A program made the position numbers and the translations under genes. From positions 31,849 through 95,848 of the forward strand of contig JBGASG010000013.1 in assembly GCA_044229845.1 (NCBI GenBank): a DNA stretch of 64,000 nucleotides, read 5' to 3'. Positions within the stretch are counted from its first letter, which is position 1. Every line of letters starts with the position of its first letter. The stretch is from Candidatus Obscuribacteraceae bacterium (GTDB taxonomy: Bacteria; Cyanobacteriota; Vampirovibrionia; Obscuribacterales; Obscuribacteraceae). Under the pieces are notes generated by a model. That model searched no databases. It was not told where the DNA came from and saw only the letters and a list, made by a program, of their open reading frames with translations. Positions 26,200 to 48,230 of this stretch are shown piece by piece.

Positions 26200-26838
26200 C
26201 TATTCCTTGTCTTTTTCCTTGCTGGCGGCAGCGGGAGCTGCAGCGGCAGGAGCGGCTTCGGCAGCAGCGGCTTTGGTTTCTTCAACCATGGCTTTCTTGG
26301 CCACCACACGGGCAACCAGTTCTTCCGGTGGGTTGAGGACCACGACGCCCTTCGGCAGTTTCAGTTCGGAGAAGTGAATGCCGTGATCGACTTCGACGAT
26401 TGTGGACAGGTCGACTTCGATGAAGTCAGGGATGTCGCCCGGCAAGCATTCGACTTCTGCATCAGCAAAGTTTTCGATCAATTGACCGCCTGCGGCAACC
26501 GCCGGCGATTCGCCGAAGAACTTGAGCGGCACGTTCATGGTCACCTTACGGTCTGCGGCCACACGGTAGAACTCAACGTTCAAGACTTCGTGAGTGGTGT
26601 GCTTGCGCTGCACATGGCGGATGATCGCCTGGACGGTTTTCTTGTCAGGACCGCCTTCCAGCTCGATAATGTGCGAGTAGGCGGCAGCCGGCAGGCGGGT
26701 GAACTCGCGTTCATTTACCTGGACGTTGATTGACGGCGAGCCCGGACCGTAAACGGTGGCGGGGATTTTGCCGTCGCGACGCAGCTGATTGGGCTTCCGC
26801 TCTTCGCGCGTCTCAAGCTTGAGCTTGAACTTTTCCAT
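26200..26838 (-). CDS. rplY: 50S ribosomal protein L25 (CTC/TL5 long form)
   Basis: LRRDGKIPATVYG, VECLPGDIPDFIEVDLS, ELKLPKGV, Ala/Glu/Lys tail. Confidence 0.95.
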   Translation of the reverse strand: MEKFKLKLETREERKPNQLRRDGKIPATVYGPGSPSINVQVNEREFTRLPAAAYSHIIELEGGPDKKTVQAIIRHVQRKHTTHEVLNVEFYRVAADRKVTMNVPLKFFGESPAVAAGGQLIENFADAEVECLPGDIPDFIEVDLSTIVEVDHGIHFSELKLPKGVVVLNPPEELVARVVAKKAMVEETKAAAAEAAPAAAAPAAASKEKDKE

Positions 26839-32601: not shown

Positions 32602-32745
32602 AGTTCAATCGCCCTGCAAAAAGTTCCCATACGGTACCAAAATCGGGGCGAGCCCGCCAGAATTCGGCCCATTGACATGATACGAGCAATACAATCGCTG
32701 CTCTCATTTACTAAGCAAATATTCCAATCAGTGCCCGAGTGCGTG

Positions 32746-32800
32746 CCGAATCAGGGCTGAATCAGTGCTGAATCAGTGCTGAATCAGTGATGAGTCAGTG
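32746..32800. repeat. 11-bp tandem repeat (CTGAATCAGTG), 3 perfect and 2 degenerate copies
   Basis: ccgaatcaggg ctgaatcagtg ctgaatcagtg ctgaatcagtg atgagtcagtg. Confidence 0.9.
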
Positions 32801-37257: not shown

Positions 37258-39582
37258 ATGGACGAATCCGTCAAAACCCGAGCCGTCCGAAAACTCTGCT
37301 CCGAGTGCGGTGAGCAGTACCCGGCTGACGCCCAGGTCTGCAGGCGCGATGGGGCTGCCTTGCTGACCCTGTCTGTGCCTCAAAAAATGCCCGACCCGGC
37401 GGAAGAACTGCTGCCGGTTGGCACCGTGCTCGGCGACCGCTACGAAGTGCTGTCCGTCATCGGCAGTGGTGGCATGGGGATTGTATACAAGGCTCGCCAC
37501 CGACTCATGGATCGCCTGGTGGCGGTCAAGATGTTGAACAGAGAAACCATTGCCAACGCCGAACTACTGGAGAGATTTCAGGGCGAGGCAAAAACAGCCA
37601 GCATGCTCTCCCATCCCAATATCGTTGCGGTGTTCGACTACGGTGTCTTCGAAGAGAAACCCTACCTGGTCATGGATTACGTCGAGGGACGCAGCCTGGA
37701 AGACCTGATCATTGAAGGTCCGATTCCACTGAAGCGCATCTTTTCCATCTTCAGCCAGGCAGCCGATGCCCTTTCTCACGCACACCAGAAGGGTGTGGTC
37801 CATCGCGACGTCAAGCCGAGCAATATCATGATCGAGCAGAACGACATCGATCCCAACTACGTGCGCGTCTTAGATTTCGGCATCGCCAAACTGATGCGCA
37901 CATCCTCACGCAAAGACTCCGGCGAGCACAAGGTGACCAGAGGGGGCGAGGTATTCGGCACCGCTCCGTACATGAGCCCGGAACAATGCATGGGCGGGGA
38001 GATTGGCATCGCCAGCGATATCTACTCGCTGGGGTGTGTTATGTACGAAGCGCTGATCGGCGAGCCTGCCATTCAGGGCAAGGACACCATCGACACTATT
38101 TACAAACAGATCAATGATGAGGCACTGCCACTGCGGACGGTGCGCGCCGATCTGAACATTCCACCGGCGATCGAACAGGTGGTGATGAAAGCTCTGCGTA
38201 AAGACCCGAACCGACGCTATGCAACCATGCATGAACTGCAGGCGTCCCTGGAGGAAGCATTTAAACCGGCGCAGTCCACCGCCGCCGCTAACATCGATCC
38301 TCCCCCAGCAGGCAAGACTGCGTCCGCTGAAAAACGCGCCGCCGGCAGACGCAATTTGCGACGCTGGCTGGTTCCACTGGCTGTGGCAGCAGTTCTTGTG
38401 CCCCTAGCCGGAGCGCTCATTTACCTGGCGGCCGGGGACGGCACTTTCAAGTCGAAGCGGTTGCAGGCAGTTTTGTTTATCCAGGACAACACCGGGAGCG
38501 CCACCAGTGCGTCCGTGATTCCAACACTCAATTCTCTGGCAGCGGAATACCGGCAATCCAATCCTGACTCGATGCCCGCTATACGCACTCAAGAGCGGCT
38601 GACTCAGCTGCTTGAGAAGTATCGCCCCAACACGCGCGAACTGGCAAAGGCGAAACTTGACCTGGCAGAGCTCTTCAGCAGACGCACCAATTCGATTCGC
38701 TCTAAGTCGCTGCGGCGAGAAGCATTACAAGCCTTGCAAACCTATACGGCTTCATTGCCGGACAACGCTGCCGACAAAGAGTCAACACTGAAACAGCAAT
38801 CAGACCTGGCGAAAACCGTTTACGGTGCGACGAGCCTGGAATATGCCGAAGCGCTCTCGCTCTGCGCTCAGCTACACGGAAGAAACCGCGACTGGCAATA
38901 TGCCGAAACAGAATACGGTCAGTCCTTGAAAATTCGCCGTCAGGTATACGGAGAAACCAGCGATAAGTATGCCGATGCACTCGAAGAATACGGTGAGGTT
39001 TGCATTCAGGCTCACAGTTTTACGAAGGCAGCAATGCTTCTGCAAGGTGCGCTTGAGATCAGAGAGAAATTGCACGGCAAAGAGTCCGCACTTTCCGCTC
39101 GCTCCAACCGCTCGCTCGGCAAGCTCTATCAGGACATGGGTCGTACCTCCGATGCCGAGAGCTGTCTGCTGGCAGCCATCGCCAGCCAGGGAGCGGCAAC
39201 CGGCGCTGAAAGTCAGGAGGTAGCTCCGATTTTGACAGAGCTGGCGGCGGTGTACGAAGCTCAACACAACGCCAAGCAAGCGCAGTCCATGTATAAGCTC
39301 GCCCTCACCATCGAAGACAGCCAGTCGAAAAAAGATGCCGCTAGCCAGGACGTCGCCACGACTCTCGAAGGACTTTCCCGCGCTTATGTCGAGCAAGGCA
39401 ATCTGAAAGATGCAGAAATCGCTTTGACAAGGGCTGTATCCTTGCGAGAAGAAAGGGGCGGTGCTCCGCTCGTCGCCGCTCTCCGGCAACTGTCCAAAGT
39501 GCTGGACTCTGAAAACAAGGGCAGCGAAGCGGCAAAGGTTTTGAAGCGCGCGCAAGCGCTGGAGGCGCAGAAAAAGCCATGA
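37258..39582 (+). CDS. Membrane Ser/Thr kinase with C-terminal TPR array
   Basis: N-terminal CSEC..CRRDG; GSGGMG, HRDVKPSN, DFGIAK, YMSPEQC; TM WLVPLAVAAVLVPLAGALIYL; TPRs. Confidence 0.92.
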   Translation: MDESVKTRAVRKLCSECGEQYPADAQVCRRDGAALLTLSVPQKMPDPAEELLPVGTVLGDRYEVLSVIGSGGMGIVYKARHRLMDRLVAVKMLNRETIANAELLERFQGEAKTASMLSHPNIVAVFDYGVFEEKPYLVMDYVEGRSLEDLIIEGPIPLKRIFSIFSQAADALSHAHQKGVVHRDVKPSNIMIEQNDIDPNYVRVLDFGIAKLMRTSSRKDSGEHKVTRGGEVFGTAPYMSPEQCMGGEIGIASDIYSLGCVMYEALIGEPAIQGKDTIDTIYKQINDEALPLRTVRADLNIPPAIEQVVMKALRKDPNRRYATMHELQASLEEAFKPAQSTAAANIDPPPAGKTASAEKRAAGRRNLRRWLVPLAVAAVLVPLAGALIYLAAGDGTFKSKRLQAVLFIQDNTGSATSASVIPTLNSLAAEYRQSNPDSMPAIRTQERLTQLLEKYRPNTRELAKAKLDLAELFSRRTNSIRSKSLRREALQALQTYTASLPDNAADKESTLKQQSDLAKTVYGATSLEYAEALSLCAQLHGRNRDWQYAETEYGQSLKIRRQVYGETSDKYADALEEYGEVCIQAHSFTKAAMLLQGALEIREKLHGKESALSARSNRSLGKLYQDMGRTSDAESCLLAAIASQGAATGAESQEVAPILTELAAVYEAQHNAKQAQSMYKLALTIEDSQSKKDAASQDVATTLEGLSRAYVEQGNLKDAEIALTRAVSLREERGGAPLVAALRQLSKVLDSENKGSEAAKVLKRAQALEAQKKP

Positions 39583-41873
39583 GTTGGGAAGACCACCTGC
39601 CTCCCGATGAACTCTTGAACACGGTGATAGGCGAAAAATACCGGCTCCTGGAGCGGATCGGCGAAGGTGGCATGAGTGTTGTGTATAGAGCATTGCACCT
39701 GCAGCTCGATCGCATGGTGGCAGTCAAAATAGTGCAGGATCGGCACGCCTCACGCGATCCGCAAAGTATGGAGCGTTTTCGGCAGGAAGCTCGCGCCGCC
39801 AGCTCGCTCACCCACCCAAACGTAATTGCCGTCTTTGACTATGGTGTCACCGGCAATGGCATCGCCTACCTGGTTATGGACTTCCTGGACGGCATTGGTC
39901 TGGATGAGGTGCTGCGCAGAGAGCGTCTGTCGCCGTGGCGCTTCGTCCGCATTTTCGGGCAGGTCTGCGATGCGCTCACGCAGGCGCACAGCAAGGGGAT
40001 TATTCATCGCGACATAAAGCCCAGCAACATCATGCTTGTAGACCTGCCTGATCACGAGGACTTCGTGAAAATTCTGGACTTCGGAATCGCTAAGTTTGTC
40101 CCCGGCTCGGTCCCCAGCTCTCAGCAGTTGACACAAGTGGGAGAGATCCTCGGCAGTCCTCTCTACATGAGTCCTGAGCAGTGCATGGGGCAAACTCTGG
40201 ACACACGCTCGGACATCTATTCACTTGGATGTGTCATGTACGAGGCTTTCACCGGTATGGCGCCGATTCAAGGTGAGAACGTGCTGGCCATAATCTACAA
40301 GCACATTCACTACACGCCGCCGGAATTCAGCACCATAATTCCTCCGGAAACGCGAATTCCCGCCGAACTGGAAGAACTGGTGCATAAAGCGTTGAGAAAA
40401 AGTCCTGATGAACGCTGGTCTTCCACTTCGGAAATGAGCAAAGCGATCAGAGCGGCCGGCAAACGACTGCCGATAGAAACCGAAGCTCAACTGAACTTTC
40501 AACCCGATTCCGCGCCCGGTCGTTCGAAACCCGTGGAAAAAACCGGACACAGCACGACTGCGAAATTGTTTCTTGAGAGGATAGCATTTGCCGAAGCAGC
40601 AAAGGGCGAGAACAGTACGGATCTGATTCCGATTCTCGAACAATTAGCTGAGTACTACAAACGGCAGCAAGACTATCAGGAAGCCGAATTACTGTATCAC
40701 CGGTCGGTTCGCATTCTCGTCAATAAATTCGGCGCTTTCTCCCCGCAAGTTGCCGATGCTGTTTTTCATCTGGCGGAGTTTTATCAATCGCTGGGGAGGC
40801 ATCACGAAGCGGAGCCACTGCTTGTCGATCTAGTCACCATCAAAGAGAAGGCCAAGGGCAAAGACAAGCTCGATTTGCCTTTCATCTGGCAATGCCTGGG
40901 CGACGCTTATAAACACACCGGACGCCTTGCCGAGTCAGCAAAGGCATACGGCAAATCGCTGAAAGCGTGCGAGAAGATCTTCGGAAAGACTGACCCGCGG
41001 CTGGCGGCATCAATCAGCAGACTGGCGACGGTATTGTACATGGAAGGCAACTTAAAGGATGCCGCCATCAATTTCAAAAGGCTGGTCTCGATCTATGAAA
41101 GCATCCATGGACCAGCGCACGAATCAGTTGCCGACGCACTCGTTTCTCTAGCGATCATCTATCAGAGCGACAATCAGAATCAGCTATCGGAAGAATGCTT
41201 GCGGCGAGCGCTGTCCACTCAGGAAGAGCTGCTCGGCAAGTACCATCCCAGCGTCGCCTCCACATGCGTCTTTCTTGCCGACTTGTGCAACAGCGAGCAA
41301 CGGCATGTAGAGGCAGAGTATCTCTACAACCGTGCTCTCGATATTCGCTGCAATTACTATGGTGCCAATTCGCTGGAGTCCGCCAGCGCTTACGAATGCC
41401 TGGGCTCTTACTACGCAGTGCTCAACCGCTTTCAAGAAGCGGAGCAGATGTATCGCAGCAGTCTGAGCATCCGCGAGACAGTCCAGGGCTTTACGCACGC
41501 CGATCTGGCCGTACCGGCGCGGTCGCTGGCAATTCTTTATGAACGCAACGGTCAGTATAAGAAGGCAGAGCATTACTATGTGGCGGCGCTGGAAGCGTTG
41601 CAATCGAGTAATTCACCGGATGTGCTGGCAAGCGTCCTGCAATCTCTCGGTAATGCCTACCTGCAGCAGTCCAGGTTCGAAGAGGCTCGTGCCGCATACG
41701 AGCGTGTCATCGGGATCAAAGAAGCGTCCTGGGGAGAAACCCACTCCACACTTCTGGAGACTCTGACGCAGCTGGAAGCTGCTCTGGCAAACCTGCAGGA
41801 AAACCCGGAACTGGAGAAAGTGCGGGCTCGCGCAGCGCGCATCCGCGCCATCAATTCGCTCGATTCGAATTAG
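39579..41873 (+). CDS. Soluble Ser/Thr kinase with C-terminal TPR array
   Basis: GEGGMS, HRDIKPSN, DFGIAK, GSPLYMSPEQC; no TM seen; ATGA overlap with the upstream kinase. Confidence 0.92.
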   Translation: MSWEDHLPPDELLNTVIGEKYRLLERIGEGGMSVVYRALHLQLDRMVAVKIVQDRHASRDPQSMERFRQEARAASSLTHPNVIAVFDYGVTGNGIAYLVMDFLDGIGLDEVLRRERLSPWRFVRIFGQVCDALTQAHSKGIIHRDIKPSNIMLVDLPDHEDFVKILDFGIAKFVPGSVPSSQQLTQVGEILGSPLYMSPEQCMGQTLDTRSDIYSLGCVMYEAFTGMAPIQGENVLAIIYKHIHYTPPEFSTIIPPETRIPAELEELVHKALRKSPDERWSSTSEMSKAIRAAGKRLPIETEAQLNFQPDSAPGRSKPVEKTGHSTTAKLFLERIAFAEAAKGENSTDLIPILEQLAEYYKRQQDYQEAELLYHRSVRILVNKFGAFSPQVADAVFHLAEFYQSLGRHHEAEPLLVDLVTIKEKAKGKDKLDLPFIWQCLGDAYKHTGRLAESAKAYGKSLKACEKIFGKTDPRLAASISRLATVLYMEGNLKDAAINFKRLVSIYESIHGPAHESVADALVSLAIIYQSDNQNQLSEECLRRALSTQEELLGKYHPSVASTCVFLADLCNSEQRHVEAEYLYNRALDIRCNYYGANSLESASAYECLGSYYAVLNRFQEAEQMYRSSLSIRETVQGFTHADLAVPARSLAILYERNGQYKKAEHYYVAALEALQSSNSPDVLASVLQSLGNAYLQQSRFEEARAAYERVIGIKEASWGETHSTLLETLTQLEAALANLQENPELEKVRARAARIRAINSLDSN

Positions 41874-43501: not shown

Positions 43502-43813
43502 TCAGATAATGCCCAATTCCATTTTCACGTCTTCGGTCGCCATCGAACGTGGATCCCAGCGGGGACTCCAGACCAGTTGCACCTCGGGTTCTTTCACCCA
43601 GGGCAATTTGACCAGCGCCTGGTGCACCTGTCCCTGAATAACCGCTCCCAGCGGACATGCCGGGCTAGTCAAGGTCATGCGCACAACAACCTTGCCCTCA
43701 TCCTTAATGTCGACGCCGTATATCAGACCCAAGTCGACGATGTTGACCCCCAGTTCAGGGTCGACAATACTCTTGAGATGCTCTCGGACGACGTCTTCCT
43801 GAAGCGATGTCAT
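43502..43813 (-). CDS. sufT: DUF59/SufT Fe-S maturation protein
   Basis: DPELGVNIVDLGLIY, MTLTSPACPL, VWSPRW. Confidence 0.88.
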   Translation of the reverse strand: MTSLQEDVVREHLKSIVDPELGVNIVDLGLIYGVDIKDEGKVVVRMTLTSPACPLGAVIQGQVHQALVKLPWVKEPEVQLVWSPRWDPRSMATEDVKMELGII

Positions 43814-43963
43814 GGCGGGCTCCTGTGTCTTCGCTATTGCTTTGGTGATCCACAGATCGTATCAGGTGCAATCTTTCCAAAACAGTTTTCAAGCAGCTTC
43901 TGCACACATTTCGGAAATTCTCGCACCCGGGTAGATGCAGTCATGGTGTAGACTCCACTGCCT

Positions 43964-44833
43964 ATGACGCGAGAGAAACAGTCAGAGCTCCAATCAAGGC
44001 TGTGGTTCGACCAGCGCACACGGCCAGAGGAAATTCGCCTAGAGATCATCGCCAATGCCGAAGCTCTAACGGAGCTGACCATACTCAATCTGGATTTCAT
44101 CAACGGAAAGGATTTCTTCACCGACCTTGAGTTGCCGGCTCTCAAAGAACTGACCATTGCCAGCATTGCCGGCTTGGATTGCCCACAGGGATGGCGATTT
44201 CTCCACGGATTAAGCTCTCTGCGCGCGCTAAGCGTCGGGCGGACGGTTTTTAAAGACTCAATGATCGGTGAGTTGGCAGCGGCTCCATGGTGGCGGTCAC
44301 TAAGGCAGCTCGAGCTGCATATGTTTGACTTGAACAAGACCAGCCTGTGGCCAACGCTGTGGCATGGTCAAGTTCTTCGAATCGAACTGCTTTGTCTGTT
44401 CTACCTAACCGGCGACCATTGCCTGCAAGTCTTGACGGCAAACCTGCCGGATTTGAGGTATCTGATCCTGGGCTCGGAAGCCGACGATCAGATTCTCAAG
44501 ACTCTTGCCGAAACCGCTTTGCCGAGCCTCGAGGATCTGGAATTGCGGCACACCAACATCAGTCCCGAAGCGCTATACACCTTTTTGCACAACCCGCGAC
44601 CAGGGCTGCCGAAATTGAAACGAGTAGGAAAAAACGTCTACAGCGATCGGCGAGTCGACTACTACGACTGGAACGGCGCGGTCGTGGATTGGGGCTATGA
44701 GCTTATGTCCGATGCCGAAGTACACAAGGCATACTTTAAAGACACCGGAGTAAGTCTTTTACCATCCAACTTCGAATTGGATACGCGCTTGCAGTCGAAC
44801 GGGCATCCCCGCCTTCTGTCCCAACCAGGCTAG
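43964..44833 (+). CDS. Leucine-rich repeat-like hypothetical protein
   Basis: Repeated LPALKELTI, LSSLRALSV, LRQLEL, LPDLRYLIL, LPSLEDLEL. Confidence 0.7.
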   Translation: MTREKQSELQSRLWFDQRTRPEEIRLEIIANAEALTELTILNLDFINGKDFFTDLELPALKELTIASIAGLDCPQGWRFLHGLSSLRALSVGRTVFKDSMIGELAAAPWWRSLRQLELHMFDLNKTSLWPTLWHGQVLRIELLCLFYLTGDHCLQVLTANLPDLRYLILGSEADDQILKTLAETALPSLEDLELRHTNISPEALYTFLHNPRPGLPKLKRVGKNVYSDRRVDYYDWNGAVVDWGYELMSDAEVHKAYFKDTGVSLLPSNFELDTRLQSNGHPRLLSQPG

Positions 44834-44859
44834 CTGCCAATCTGCGGTATGATCTGCTG

Positions 44860-46515
44860 ATGCTCTCGGCGAAACACCTTAAGCTCACACTGGTGGCTCT
44901 GGCGGCTACCATAGTGCCGGCGTGCGCTCAAAGCACTGACGCAGCGCAATATGCTCAGCAGGGGCTGCAGTTCTTCGGGTCCCAACAGTTTCAGTCAGCC
45001 ATTAAGTCTTTTGACGAAGCCATTCGGCTGAGTCCGAGTGACGCATCTTACTTTTACTACAGTGGTTGGGCGCATCAAAGCTATGCATATCTGGCTGGTT
45101 CTGCTCAAGAACGCGAACAGGAGCTGACCGAAGCCGAGCGTCAATTTGCCAAAGCCGTCCGATTGCGCGGCGATTATTTCGACGCCTTGATTCATCTGTC
45201 TAACGTTCAATCTGAACTCAAGAAATACAGTGAGAGCCTGAAAAATCTTCAAACAGCGCTGGCAGTACCCGGTGTGCAACCAGCGGACCAGGCGCGGACC
45301 CAACAAGCGATGGCATTCGTGCAGCAGCAGTTAGCGCAGCAGCAGGAAACGTCACAACCTACTGCTAGTGCGCCGCCAGCAGAAACCGAAAGTGCCACTG
45401 CGGCAGAGTCGGAAACTCCGACTGCCTCTCCGGCGGTCGTGGCTGAAGCTCCCAAGGAAATGGATCAAAGCGATTCCGAAGGCGGAGATGATTTCGGCGT
45501 GACACCATCGGCGGAGGCACCGCCAGCCCCTACCGAGGGAGCGACTGGCAGCGATCTCGCTTTCAACGGCTGGACACGTTATGTAGATCCCTCGGAGAAC
45601 TCTTTCTCCGTCGAGGTGCCGGTCGGTTGGAAAACGGAGGGCGGACTCACGCGCGTCAGCGCCATCGATTGCCGCCCATGGGTGAAGGTAACATCACCCG
45701 ATAATTTGTTTTGCGCTTTCATTGGTGACGGGACGATTTCCCCGTGCACCATGCCTAACGCGCAGCTCAGCTCCCTTGGTTTCTACCCGGGACGCAATTA
45801 CAACGGTTCTAAGATTCTGGCTTACATTCCAGCTCGACGCTTTGTTGAAAAGTACGCGTTTTTGAAGTTGAAGTCGGTGATCAGCAACCTGCAGGTCGTT
45901 TCCGAATCAAATCATCCGGATATCGCGCAGGCTGTGAACGGCACGGTGGGAGCCACCAGGTCCGAGTGCGCATCGATCAAAATCACTGGCGACTACGGCA
46001 ACATTCCCGCATCGGGTTATTACATCGCCGCCACAAAAGCCACCGTAATGAATGGCACAGGCATGTGGTGGGTGACCTACATAGCAGGCAATCTGGGGCC
46101 GGCTGCGCGCGATGGGGCGGGTCTGGGAGTGCTTCTGCACATGATGGGTACGTTTCAAATGAATCCGGAGTGGAGCAAACGCTCACACGACACAACCTGG
46201 CGAGTTTCTCAAAATTACAGACAAACCGCTAATCAAATTTCGAATTCGATTATGAACCGATACTGGAGTCAGCAAGCTGCGAACGACAGATTCAACCAGG
46301 CTTACTGGAACCGGCAAGCAGTGCAGGATAAAGCGGCAGGAAACTTCTCTGATTACATCAGAGGTGAACAGACGGTTGCCGATCCTCAGACCGGTCAGCA
46401 GTGGAAAGTCAATCAAGCCAATGAGCACTGGATGGATTCATCGGGAAACATCACAGGCACTGACTATGGCGGACAGCCTGGTCCCGATTGGCGCAAGCTC
46501 AATAACGTTCCCTGA
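44860..46515 (+). CDS. Secreted protein: N-terminal TPRs, acidic Pro/Ala linker, unknown C-terminal domain
   Basis: Signal peptide ..PACA|Q; AIKSFDEAIRLSP TPR; low-complexity linker. Confidence 0.75.
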   Translation: MLSAKHLKLTLVALAATIVPACAQSTDAAQYAQQGLQFFGSQQFQSAIKSFDEAIRLSPSDASYFYYSGWAHQSYAYLAGSAQEREQELTEAERQFAKAVRLRGDYFDALIHLSNVQSELKKYSESLKNLQTALAVPGVQPADQARTQQAMAFVQQQLAQQQETSQPTASAPPAETESATAAESETPTASPAVVAEAPKEMDQSDSEGGDDFGVTPSAEAPPAPTEGATGSDLAFNGWTRYVDPSENSFSVEVPVGWKTEGGLTRVSAIDCRPWVKVTSPDNLFCAFIGDGTISPCTMPNAQLSSLGFYPGRNYNGSKILAYIPARRFVEKYAFLKLKSVISNLQVVSESNHPDIAQAVNGTVGATRSECASIKITGDYGNIPASGYYIAATKATVMNGTGMWWVTYIAGNLGPAARDGAGLGVLLHMMGTFQMNPEWSKRSHDTTWRVSQNYRQTANQISNSIMNRYWSQQAANDRFNQAYWNRQAVQDKAAGNFSDYIRGEQTVADPQTGQQWKVNQANEHWMDSSGNITGTDYGGQPGPDWRKLNNVP

Positions 46516-46538
46516 AACGCGAGGACTTGAGTCCGATT

Positions 46539-47150
46539 TCACCCAAGGAGAACCGGACTCCTGCCGGCGTTAGACAAAGGCAGCGCCAGCAACGCAGCCA
46601 GCCAATATGGCAACAGTTTGAATCGCGCATCGGTTTCCTGCCAGTTGCTCTCCGACCACTGCACCGCTGCATGCTGTACGAAATGAGCCGGGTCACTGTT
46701 CCGTCCCAAATGCCACATCGTACGCAGTTGCACCCCGACCGTTGAGTCTTGGAGAGCAATTTTGCGCAGTGACGCGCCCACAAACTGAATTGGTCCATGG
46801 CATGACCAAATAGTGCTACTGCGTCCATTTGTGGCGAAGATTGCCTCAGCACTCGCCTGAACCTCGATACCGATGCCTCGCGCGAAGTCGATGCTGATCT
46901 CGGCTACAGTTTTGAAGAATGCCTGTGCCTTGGCATGCGCAATCTGCGTGACAGTCGGTTTCGCTGCAGTCCTGTTACCCTTGATGTAGAGCCCTTGCGC
47001 AACGCGGAAAATCTCCCCGCTCTTATTCAGCCGGTAGAGCGCACAATACAAGGTTCCACGTCGCCTCGAAAAGTGCAGCACGTCGCGCGCGCTGAACATC
47101 TCGCCGTCTTTGAGGGTCTCGAGAAATTCTCTCAGTTTTGCGGTAGCCAT
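46539..47150 (-). CDS. DUF6088/AbiEi-like wHTH protein (type IV TA antitoxin-related)
   Basis: FSARD..ALYRL.KSGEI.RVAQGLY wHTH; IA.AKA, FATNGRS, ASLRKIAL, LPYW; AGGAGG 8 nt before ATG 47150. Confidence 0.75.
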   Translation of the reverse strand: MATAKLREFLETLKDGEMFSARDVLHFSRRRGTLYCALYRLNKSGEIFRVAQGLYIKGNRTAAKPTVTQIAHAKAQAFFKTVAEISIDFARGIGIEVQASAEAIFATNGRSSTIWSCHGPIQFVGASLRKIALQDSTVGVQLRTMWHLGRNSDPAHFVQHAAVQWSESNWQETDARFKLLPYWLAALLALPLSNAGRSPVLLG

Positions 47151-47334
47151 CAGGCTCACCTCCTATTTAAAGAGGAAGCGCCCTTCTAACGGTATCACTG
47201 CAATTGAGAGGCAATATATTACTGGCAGGGCATCATGTTGACGAGTCACCGAGGCACTCGATAGTCGAAGCTCTCGATCTCATTTTAATACTTCAAGGGC
47301 TGTCGTCGCCAGCATTTCGCCTCCTCAGGGCGTG

Positions 47335-47658
47335 GTGATTTTCTGGTGCCAAAACATCACAAGCCCTCGATCGCAAGCAGCGCGGCACGTGTCGTCGTGA
47401 TTTTCTGGTGCCAAAACATCACAAGCCCTCGATCGCAGCAGCGCGGCAAGTGTCGTCGGATTTTCTGGTGCCAAAACATCACAAGCCCTCGATCGCAGCA
47501 GCGCGGCACGTGCGCAGTGATTTTCTGGTGCCAAAATATCACAAGTCCTGGGCGCAAGCAGCGCGGCACGCGTCTGATTTTCGGGTGCCAAAATATCACC
47601 TGCCCTTGGGCGCAAGCAGCGCACCACGCGTCGTGATTTTCTGGTGCCAAAATATCAC
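47335..47658. repeat. Array of six 26-bp imperfect palindromes (GTGATTTTCTGGTGCCAAAAYATCAC) with related 31-36 bp linkers
   Basis: Cores start at 47335, 47397, 47457, 47517, 47574 and 47633. Confidence 0.95.
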
Positions 47659-47735
47659 CAGCCCTGGAGGGCTTGCGCCGTGACACAGCGCGGCGGGATG
47701 ACACAGGTTCGCCGCGACCGGCAGCGCAGTCTCGG

Positions 47736-48230
47736 TTATTCGGTGGTAACGACTTGCGGTTTGATGGTTTCGACAATATCGCCGTCATGCGACTTGAGGC
47801 TTTGAATACCCTCAAGAAGCGTGTTCCACGGCAACAGTGCACACTTGATCCGAACGGGGTACTTTTTCACCCCCTGGAGCGCCTCCAGGTCTTCCATGTC
47901 TTCGCCGGCAATAAACTCGGTGGTGGCATCTTTAGAAAGCAGCATGTTCTTGAACGATTCAGCAAGCTGAGTGGCGCCCTCCAGATTCTGTCCTTTGATC
48001 GCTTCTGTCATCATAGAACCGGAGGCGGTGTTGATAGAGCAACCGCGCGACTTGATGCGAATGTCTTCGATCTTGTCTTTGTCGACGTTCAAATAGAGCG
48101 TCAGTTCATCGCCGCACAGTGGATTGACACCTTCCACCTCTACCGTCGGTTTGTCCATCACACCTTGATTGCGTGGATTGTGGTAGTGGTCGAGGATTGT
48201 CTCGCGATAGAGTTCTTCAGACAGCGACAT
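47736..48230 (-). CDS. sufU: SufU Fe-S assembly protein
   Basis: LYRETILDHY.NPRN, NPLCGD, GCSI..ASGS, PVRIKCALLPW. Confidence 0.93.
   Translation of the reverse strand: MSLSEELYRETILDHYHNPRNQGVMDKPTVEVEGVNPLCGDELTLYLNVDKDKIEDIRIKSRGCSINTASGSMMTEAIKGQNLEGATQLAESFKNMLLSKDATTEFIAGEDMEDLEALQGVKKYPVRIKCALLPWNTLLEGIQSLKSHDGDIVETIKPQVVTTE

Follow-up and report, generated by a model that had tools for sequence, protein, structure and literature searches.

The analysed window comprises 64,000 nucleotides from a Candidatus Obscuribacteraceae bacterium (genome G000, 88% complete) and was compared with G001, a genome of the same genus, and with further genomes of the family. Based on the ORF list, Pfam, and fold, it harbors a toxin-less DUF6088 gene on the minus strand (46539..47150) encoding 203 amino acids from an ATG at 47150, with an in-frame GTG ahead of it at 47159. 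The Shine-Dalgarno sequence AGGAGG, described as strong in the original prediction, is found 8 nt before the ATG (47159..47164, minus strand). Further upstream, a putative promoter-like element (AGTAAT...GT(T/G)A, 47190..47223, minus strand), which is conserved in an alignment of the window's subclade, aligns with an ECF-type promoter of the family and has an altered -35 part. Scanning for sigma-70 promoters and terminators gave nothing informative; the matches that looked like terminators were the repeat units described below. Neither the ORF list nor a Pfam scan of six nearby proteins revealed an adjacent AbiEii, cas, or transposase gene, and the AbiEii profile PF08843 had no match in the 88%-complete G000, in line with the toxin-less module that had been proposed.

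The deduced protein passed the profile check as the DUF6088/AbiEi-like product announced beforehand, with a match to PF19570 (DUF6088) of 28.1 bits against a Pfam cut-off of 25, an AbiEi fold match, and a weak match to AbiEi_4. Modeled with AlphaFold at a pLDDT of 91.9, it consists of an N-terminal winged HTH and an AbiEi-like C-terminal domain without the TQ(V/M)P-type loop discussed below. Its best full-length fold match, albeit weak, was AbiEi 6y8q (Foldseek rank 1, E 1.2e-3), and comparison of this structure with the model gave modest values (VIA Z 7.1, rmsd 6.3, 169 aligned); for the C-terminal domain alone, AbiEi and MenT1 tied at a likewise modest Z of 5.2 (rmsd 4.5, 118 aligned). A fold match to DpnI runs through the winged helix only. 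At the sequence level, a PDB search returned AbiEi only (E 0.52), and the NCBIfam model TAA_AbiEi scored 17 against a cut-off of 150 bits. Nuclease, recombinase, and HUH transposase domains were absent from the top fold-search rows for both the whole protein and its C-terminal domain, which weighs little as evidence. A metagenome scan with this single protein yielded five weak loci and was uninformative.

Upstream of the gene, TRF, a dyad search, and family comparison delimited a tandem array of six units of about 57–62 bp (47335..47658). Each unit contains one imperfect dyad of 26–28 bp with the half-site GTGA(T/G)A, its 7-bp half-sites lying 14 bp apart. The six copies start at 47335, 47397, 47457, 47517, 47574, and 47633, i.e., 185–483 bp upstream of the ATG, with the last dyad ending at 508 bp, and 10 of 12 pairs are complementary in four copies and 8 of 12 in two. 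The TRF score of 458 is the highest of the three tandem arrays in the window; further short tandem repeats lie at 32743–32800 (11-bp unit x5.3) and 26244–26273 (15-bp unit x2). Since dyad sites above 18 bits occurred 0–1 times per 2.5 Mb of shuffled DNA versus 23 times in the 5.16-Mb genome of G000, the shuffle control and the TRF score together exclude a chance array. Starts, pairing, and TRF thus bear out the six-copy array ahead of a minus-strand gene that had been predicted from the sequence; its 26-bp dyads are real, but the repeated unit is the whole stretch of about 60 bp. The five spacers are mutually 68–92% identical, the duplication covering the entire unit, which identifies a tandem array and not a repeat with unique spacers. 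At the orthologous site in G001, 11 pattern matches were found versus 6 in the G000 array, and arrays arose separately at L021 (40-bp units), L026 (49-bp units), and the ORF-less locus L182. The array is a local, variable elaboration of a family-wide, dispersed gene-plus-operator unit with ORF-less derivatives; the original prediction was right about the local array and missed this wider unit.

Cross-genus synteny placed array and gene within a genus-specific insert of 3.9 kb between sufU and sufT (43814..47735). Besides these two features, the insert comprises in both G000 and G001 two genes on the opposite strand, assigned from the ORF list and Pfam and each single-copy, namely an LRR-like gene (43964..44833, plus strand) and a TPR-containing gene (44860..46515, plus strand), the latter convergent with the DUF6088 gene at a gap of 23 bp. 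Its upstream boundary is formed by sufU (NifU_N; 47736..48230, minus strand; ORF list and Pfam), from which the insert has moved away a sufT-like FeS_assembly_P gene (43502..43813, minus strand; synteny). In 27 of 28 loci of other genera, sufT directly follows sufU, and the 28th locus stops at a contig edge. The suf operon is split in the window's genus, and sufT, now 3.9 kb from sufU and behind two antisense genes, may depend on a promoter of its own or on extended read-through. Transcription reading through from sufU would traverse the array, which lies on the same strand. The two insert junctions have no repeat of more than 8 bp in common, whether direct or inverted. Between G000 and G001, the unit at this site is 73–80% identical and the flanking genes are mostly 92–99% identical, a dip that suggests replacement in place; comparable dips were seen at 2 of the other 7 DUF6088 loci shared by the two genomes. 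Elsewhere in the window (37258–41873), reading the ORF list by eye revealed two adjoining Ser/Thr kinase genes with TPR-like tails.

Of the 104 family genomes, 94 contained matches to the DUF6088 profile, 511 in total and up to about 30 per genome; outside the family, 13 of 300 genomes of the phylum possessed DUF6088, in single copy each. Among the family loci scanned, the toxin profile matched only the canonical locus L046 (G001, contig C3). At that locus we also observed a long array of GC-rich repeats of about 20 bp ahead of the operator, 400 bp upstream of the DUF6088-AbiEii operon. A TQ(V/M)P-type loop was present in 11 of 13 canonical proteins versus none of 113 toxin-less ones. A conserved loop is reported to be required for AbiEi antitoxicity (10.64898/2026.01.19.700257), and we infer that the TQ(V/M)P-type loop is equivalent to the AbiEi D85-I87 loop. 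In a quick version of the DUF6088 tree, from which L028, L030, and G0_C3 were left out, the 64 toxin-less rows were set apart from the others by a single branch (SH-aLRT 91), with paralogues grouping by genome or genus. The toxin-less genes are under purifying selection, with a dN/dS of 0.13 for the window gene against G001 and a median of 0.07 among 15 copies of G010. Most also share an ECF-type promoter pattern (GAACT...CGT), detected before 97 of 114 genes scanned and at none of the 13 canonical loci.

G000 carries eight DUF6088 paralogues, five of them with their own dyad variant upstream. With a matrix trained on G001 dyads, 24 sites in G000 scored above 16 bits; of these, 22 lie at most 620 bp from five of the eight paralogues and the other two are solo; the co-occurrence of repeat and DUF6088 paralogues that the original prediction had raised thus holds genome-wide. 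Among the 104 family genomes, the strict form of the window dyad is restricted to the genus, bar one match. This exact dyad in G079 (L079) falls within an ORF that has no DUF6088 gene in its vicinity, and we regard it as a chance occurrence. In other genera, the palindrome reads GTNAGA-N14-TCTNAC, often with one copy between promoter and RBS and one 120–200 bp upstream. Counted on the same set from which it was derived, this motif was present in the 300-bp upstream stretch for 20 out of 50 non-redundant genes of the family, compared to 1 in the downstream control, 0 at the coding start, and 0.6 in shuffles. Its half-site spacing is fixed: N14 was found at 20 genes, N10-13 at 0–1, and N15–18 at 2–6. 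A palindrome with the same half-sites, TGTCAGA-N15/16-TCTGACA, lies within 200 bp of the start in 7 of 13 canonical, toxin-linked DUF6088 loci and at the coding start of none. This canonical set, mostly from other phyla, was not used for deriving the motif; it comprised 50 scored loci, which reduced to 13 non-redundant ones, and an AbiEii-like gene was detected at 11 of these. At the strict threshold, the dyad was missing from 30 of the 50 family genes and from 6 of the 13 canonical loci.

AbiEi is reported to bind inverted repeats starting with TGTT in its own promoter and to repress through them (PMC3985639), and Rv2827c, for which multiple upstream repeats are likewise known, is reported to bind four of them (PMC7319586). 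Fig. S8 of the former article, which lists repeats at other abiE loci, may also bear on the dyad (PMC3985639). Because the dyad matches the palindrome upstream of toxin-linked operons, an amplified operator is the best reading, as the original prediction had offered among its options; judged from sequence, the window dyad is most likely the DUF6088 protein's own dsDNA operator, tandemly amplified. The centromere-like site offered alongside found little or no backing, with no partition genes recognised among the nearby ORFs (six proteins scanned). In the window's subclade, the half-site has changed to GTGA(T/G)A, and at a position of the recognition helix a Tyr replaces an Asp that is 96% conserved in the rest of the family; being a single event, this co-change is suggestive. 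An automatic best-dyad picker failed at many loci, and its output was taken qualitatively. In this subclade, some 110 bp separate the promoter-like element from the closest dyad on its upstream side, and no dyad falls between promoter and RBS, which makes simple steric self-repression less obvious here than in the relatives.

With AbiE systems (S. agalactiae AbiEi/AbiEii, M. tuberculosis Rv2827c, and toxin-linked DUF6088), the unit shares the winged HTH plus AbiEi-type C-terminal domain and inverted repeats upstream of its own start, with half-sites in common with toxin-linked DUF6088 operons. Unlike AbiE, the window unit has no toxin gene and is not bicistronic, the next gene being the convergent TPR gene. 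The toxin-less lineage further differs in that it has lost the loop motif, has a spacer of 14 instead of 15–16 and an ECF-type promoter, and is dispersed in many copies per genome, with operators that also form tandem arrays or stand without an ORF. The DUF6088 unit would work like an AbiEi autoregulatory module, yet it is not an AbiE system. Since the half-sites of most family members still resemble those of toxin-linked operons, the protein could conceivably cross-repress the promoter of an incoming abiE, and AbiEii genes do occur elsewhere in G001 and G010. Nevertheless, it seems very unlikely to us that the protein acts in trans as an orphan antitoxin or anti-addiction factor, neutralising or silencing AbiE modules that enter the cell: all 113 toxin-less proteins lack the loop with its presumed AbiEi equivalence, the spacer is 14 versus 15–16, and the half-site in the window has diverged.

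Comparison of 98 DUF6088 loci resulted in 83 site clusters, and sites were rarely common to different genera. All eight G000 copies occupy the same sites in G001, indicating that insertion here is old. The next gene was convergent at 78 of 96 loci versus a background of 39%, a count obtained with crude ORF calls and with orthologous loci counted separately. In G010, 17 copies of a unit of about 810 bp were 90–97% identical to the query copy, and loci L049 and L050 of G013, which occupy unrelated sites, matched at 99.8% identity along some 840 bp. Neither terminal repeats nor target duplications were seen in the 24 pairs compared, and the ends were ragged. The 17 G010 copies are mosaic, with 56% of site pairs incompatible and this share rising with distance (permutation p 0.0005). 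Moreover, L127/L128 and L131/L132 are 100% and 99.9% identical, respectively, from the promoter to near the ORF end, and their upstream dyads differ. Mosaic copies with differing upstream dyads indicate ectopic gene conversion; identity and mosaicism in G010 could partly be an assembly or polishing artefact. Near positions 562000–562350 of G000 contig C1, just upstream of the dyads of the paralogue at C1:561353, we further noted an insertion missing in G001, whose end we take to be IS200/IS605-like.

An exact 28-bp dyad pattern was present in 37 of 104 family genomes (reversed control 0), comprising 36 of 94 genomes with the gene and 1 of 10 without it, a difference that was not significant (Fisher p 0.09). 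In G004, 53 exact dyads were found versus three DUF6088 genes. None of 40 chosen ORF-less loci revealed a trace of DUF6088. For 32 of them, which were intergenic with both neighbors called, 13 lay between convergent and 4 between divergent genes; measured against the G000 background (17.5% convergent, 26.6% divergent), this is an excess (p 0.002) and a deficit (p 0.047), respectively. No gene family was shared by the flanks of the 40 loci, the flanking ORFs giving four blastp pairs. Two G013 cassettes have kept dyad, promoter, dyad, and RBS-like stretch, with the ORF gone; L185 and L187 carry inverted ends of about 55 bp with no duplication. The two solo dyad sites of G000 are conserved in G001. 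Several further families of intergenic palindromes alternate with DUF6088 dyads, forming mosaic clusters that recall BIMEs (G000 C21:111885-111976, C21:3718-3769, C1:297536-297633, C13:195007, C14:50558, C19:411340, and C8:568275; loci L039, L041, L182, and L183).

The placement of the ORF-less dyads resembles that reported for REP/REPIN elements more closely than that of a regulon. The dyads seem to share with REP/REPIN-RAYT (TnpA-REP) systems, as reported, that they are lineage-restricted palindromes with each variant beside its cognate gene, extragenic and near gene 3' ends, that they occur in pairs and mixed clusters, and that they persist vertically. Unlike RAYT, the adjacent gene encodes an antitoxin fold and no HUH tyrosine transposase, with no conserved His/Tyr motif; it is itself multicopy, and G000 has only 24 dyad sites, two of them solo. 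The palindrome moreover has the look of a long-spacer dsDNA operator, unlike the short ssDNA hairpin of REP. As with IS elements and MITEs, near-identical units of about 0.8 kb sit at unrelated sites and ORF-less derivatives exist, two with inverted ends, but no transposase, constant ends, or target duplication was seen (24 pairs and the insert junctions), and signs of gene conversion were.

Active mobilisation is the main rival to the best reading. Here, similar to RAYT/REPIN, the DUF6088 protein, or a recruited host or IS enzyme, would mobilise dyad-flanked DNA, and ORF-less dyad pairs would be non-autonomous. The absence of any His, Tyr, Asp, or Glu conserved to at least 70% in the C-terminal domain argues against such mobilisation, as do the ragged ends without target duplication or terminal repeat in 24 pairs, the lack of a gene family common to the flanks of 40 ORF-less loci, and the constant sites of 8/8 G000 copies in G001. 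The abundance of ORF-less dyads in genomes such as G004, their orientation bias (13 convergent and 4 divergent of 32), the inverted ends of L185 and L187, the near-identity of L049 and L050, and the predominance of a convergent next gene speak for a mobile system, which we regard as unlikely but not as negligible.

A similar ECF-type pattern was detected at 36 sites in G000 (among them C1:262135, C6:216078, C13:120236, C18:362497, C18:455572, and C4:11147), of which 19 downstream proteins were scanned. The conserved promoter motif, TTGAACTTTTT-N12-CGT, marks a candidate competence/repair regulon including genes for RadC, ComM-like, ComF-like, and YraN-like proteins, PriA, DnaE, DnaB, SbcC, and an ECF sigma factor, the competence label being our assumption. 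In G000, L267 (C18:313400-315100) is a dnaB gene with an intein containing a LAGLIDADG-like domain. The same promoter precedes a second multicopy family (L256, L259, L261, L262, and L268; G000 C3:201849, C6:254490, C8:371338, C10:1025, and C18:76628) of 350–400 amino acids with a DprA-type winged helix (Pfam) and a Cys-rich N-terminus; upstream of every member lies a dyad whose core is GATATC, present as a tandem of four at L256, and the family looks like a parallel gene-plus-operator unit.

Purifying selection, copies kept at orthologous sites in two species, a host promoter that repair and competence genes also use, and the conservation of two solo sites in G001 would suit paralogues that are domesticated ECF stress or competence transcription factors, with solo dyads as operators of target genes. 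We consider such a host regulator improbable, more so than mobilisation, given that ORF-less dyads are depleted where neighboring genes diverge, overrepresented where their 3' ends converge, and surrounded by unrelated flanks, that copy number varies from 0 to about 30, that paralogues cluster by genome or genus, and that sites seldom cross genera.

The original prediction had alternatively proposed that transcription of the array, for example through read-through from the suf operon, yields a repeat RNA partnering the protein; a hairpin RNA with a guide or antitoxin role was considered along with it. The position downstream of sufU on the same strand would allow this, and the gene-sense strand folds better than the other against shuffles (z -2.8 vs -1.3), although good folding is expected of any palindrome array. 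Gene-sense dyads of the window's C2/C7/C21 subclade also favor G-U over A-C mismatches (36 vs 8), as for an RNA or ssDNA hairpin, but this bias is weakened by the one origin of these loci, with C1 loci leaning the opposite way, and mismatches across the family are strand-neutral (12 G-U vs 14 A-C, p 0.85). Half-site letters and spacer length are fixed and the center is poorly paired, most relatives have one or two dyads only, and an Rfam scan of 46400–48000 gave zero matches. With spacers that resemble each other, a repeat RNA is highly improbable in our view, and a guide RNA from the array is unlikely. The likeness to CRISPR arrays and type III TA repeat RNAs ends at regularly spaced, partly palindromic repeats beside a gene; unlike these, the spacers are mutual copies (68–92%), copy number has changed by tandem expansion, there is no Rfam match, and the neighbor is no nuclease. 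The ORF list contains no cas gene adjoining the array.

Altogether, we favor, with a probability of about 0.62, the reading in which the repeats are a tandem dsDNA palindrome likely bound by the DUF6088 protein, and the dispersed toxin-less unit has likely been copied and homogenised by host recombination. Two winged-helix domains would read half-sites about two helical turns apart, like AbiEi on its own inverted repeats, and in the ancestral state operator binding would repress the DUF6088 gene's own promoter. Toxin and toxin-contacting loop may have been lost once, and the gene would have come under a host ECF-type promoter that competence and repair genes also use. The array could have grown from one operator-containing unit by slippage or unequal exchange, and it might act as a high-avidity sink or as a protein roadblock to suf read-through. 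Ectopic gene conversion would maintain the copies, together with an occasional insertion into harmless positions past the 3' ends of genes. Gene conversion accounts for homogeneity, not for the first seeding of new sites and ORF-less dyads.

More tentatively, and doubtful at present, the unit may be a transposase-free selfish element, in which an antitoxin that shed its toxin and joined a competence/repair sigma regulon promotes, by means of its operator, the copying of both itself and ORF-less operator cassettes. The protein could, for example, bridge two dyad-bearing DNAs and steer host recombination. If true, this would represent a REPIN-like repeat family that originated in a toxin-antitoxin promoter and whose driver is a DNA-binding protein without catalytic activity, and such protein-driven spread without catalytic residues would be an undescribed mode of mobility. 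Our literature search, in which few subscription journals were covered, revealed no account of a toxin-less DUF6088 and dyad system.

For the preferred reading of an amplified operator, the analysis provides a concrete predicted DUF6088 binding site, TGTCAGA-N14/15-TCTGACA with its variants. Strong purifying selection on hundreds of scattered toxin-less antitoxin copies in one bacterial family is a puzzle, and the unit may illustrate a route from a toxin-antitoxin operator to a dispersed, REP-like family of intergenic repeats.
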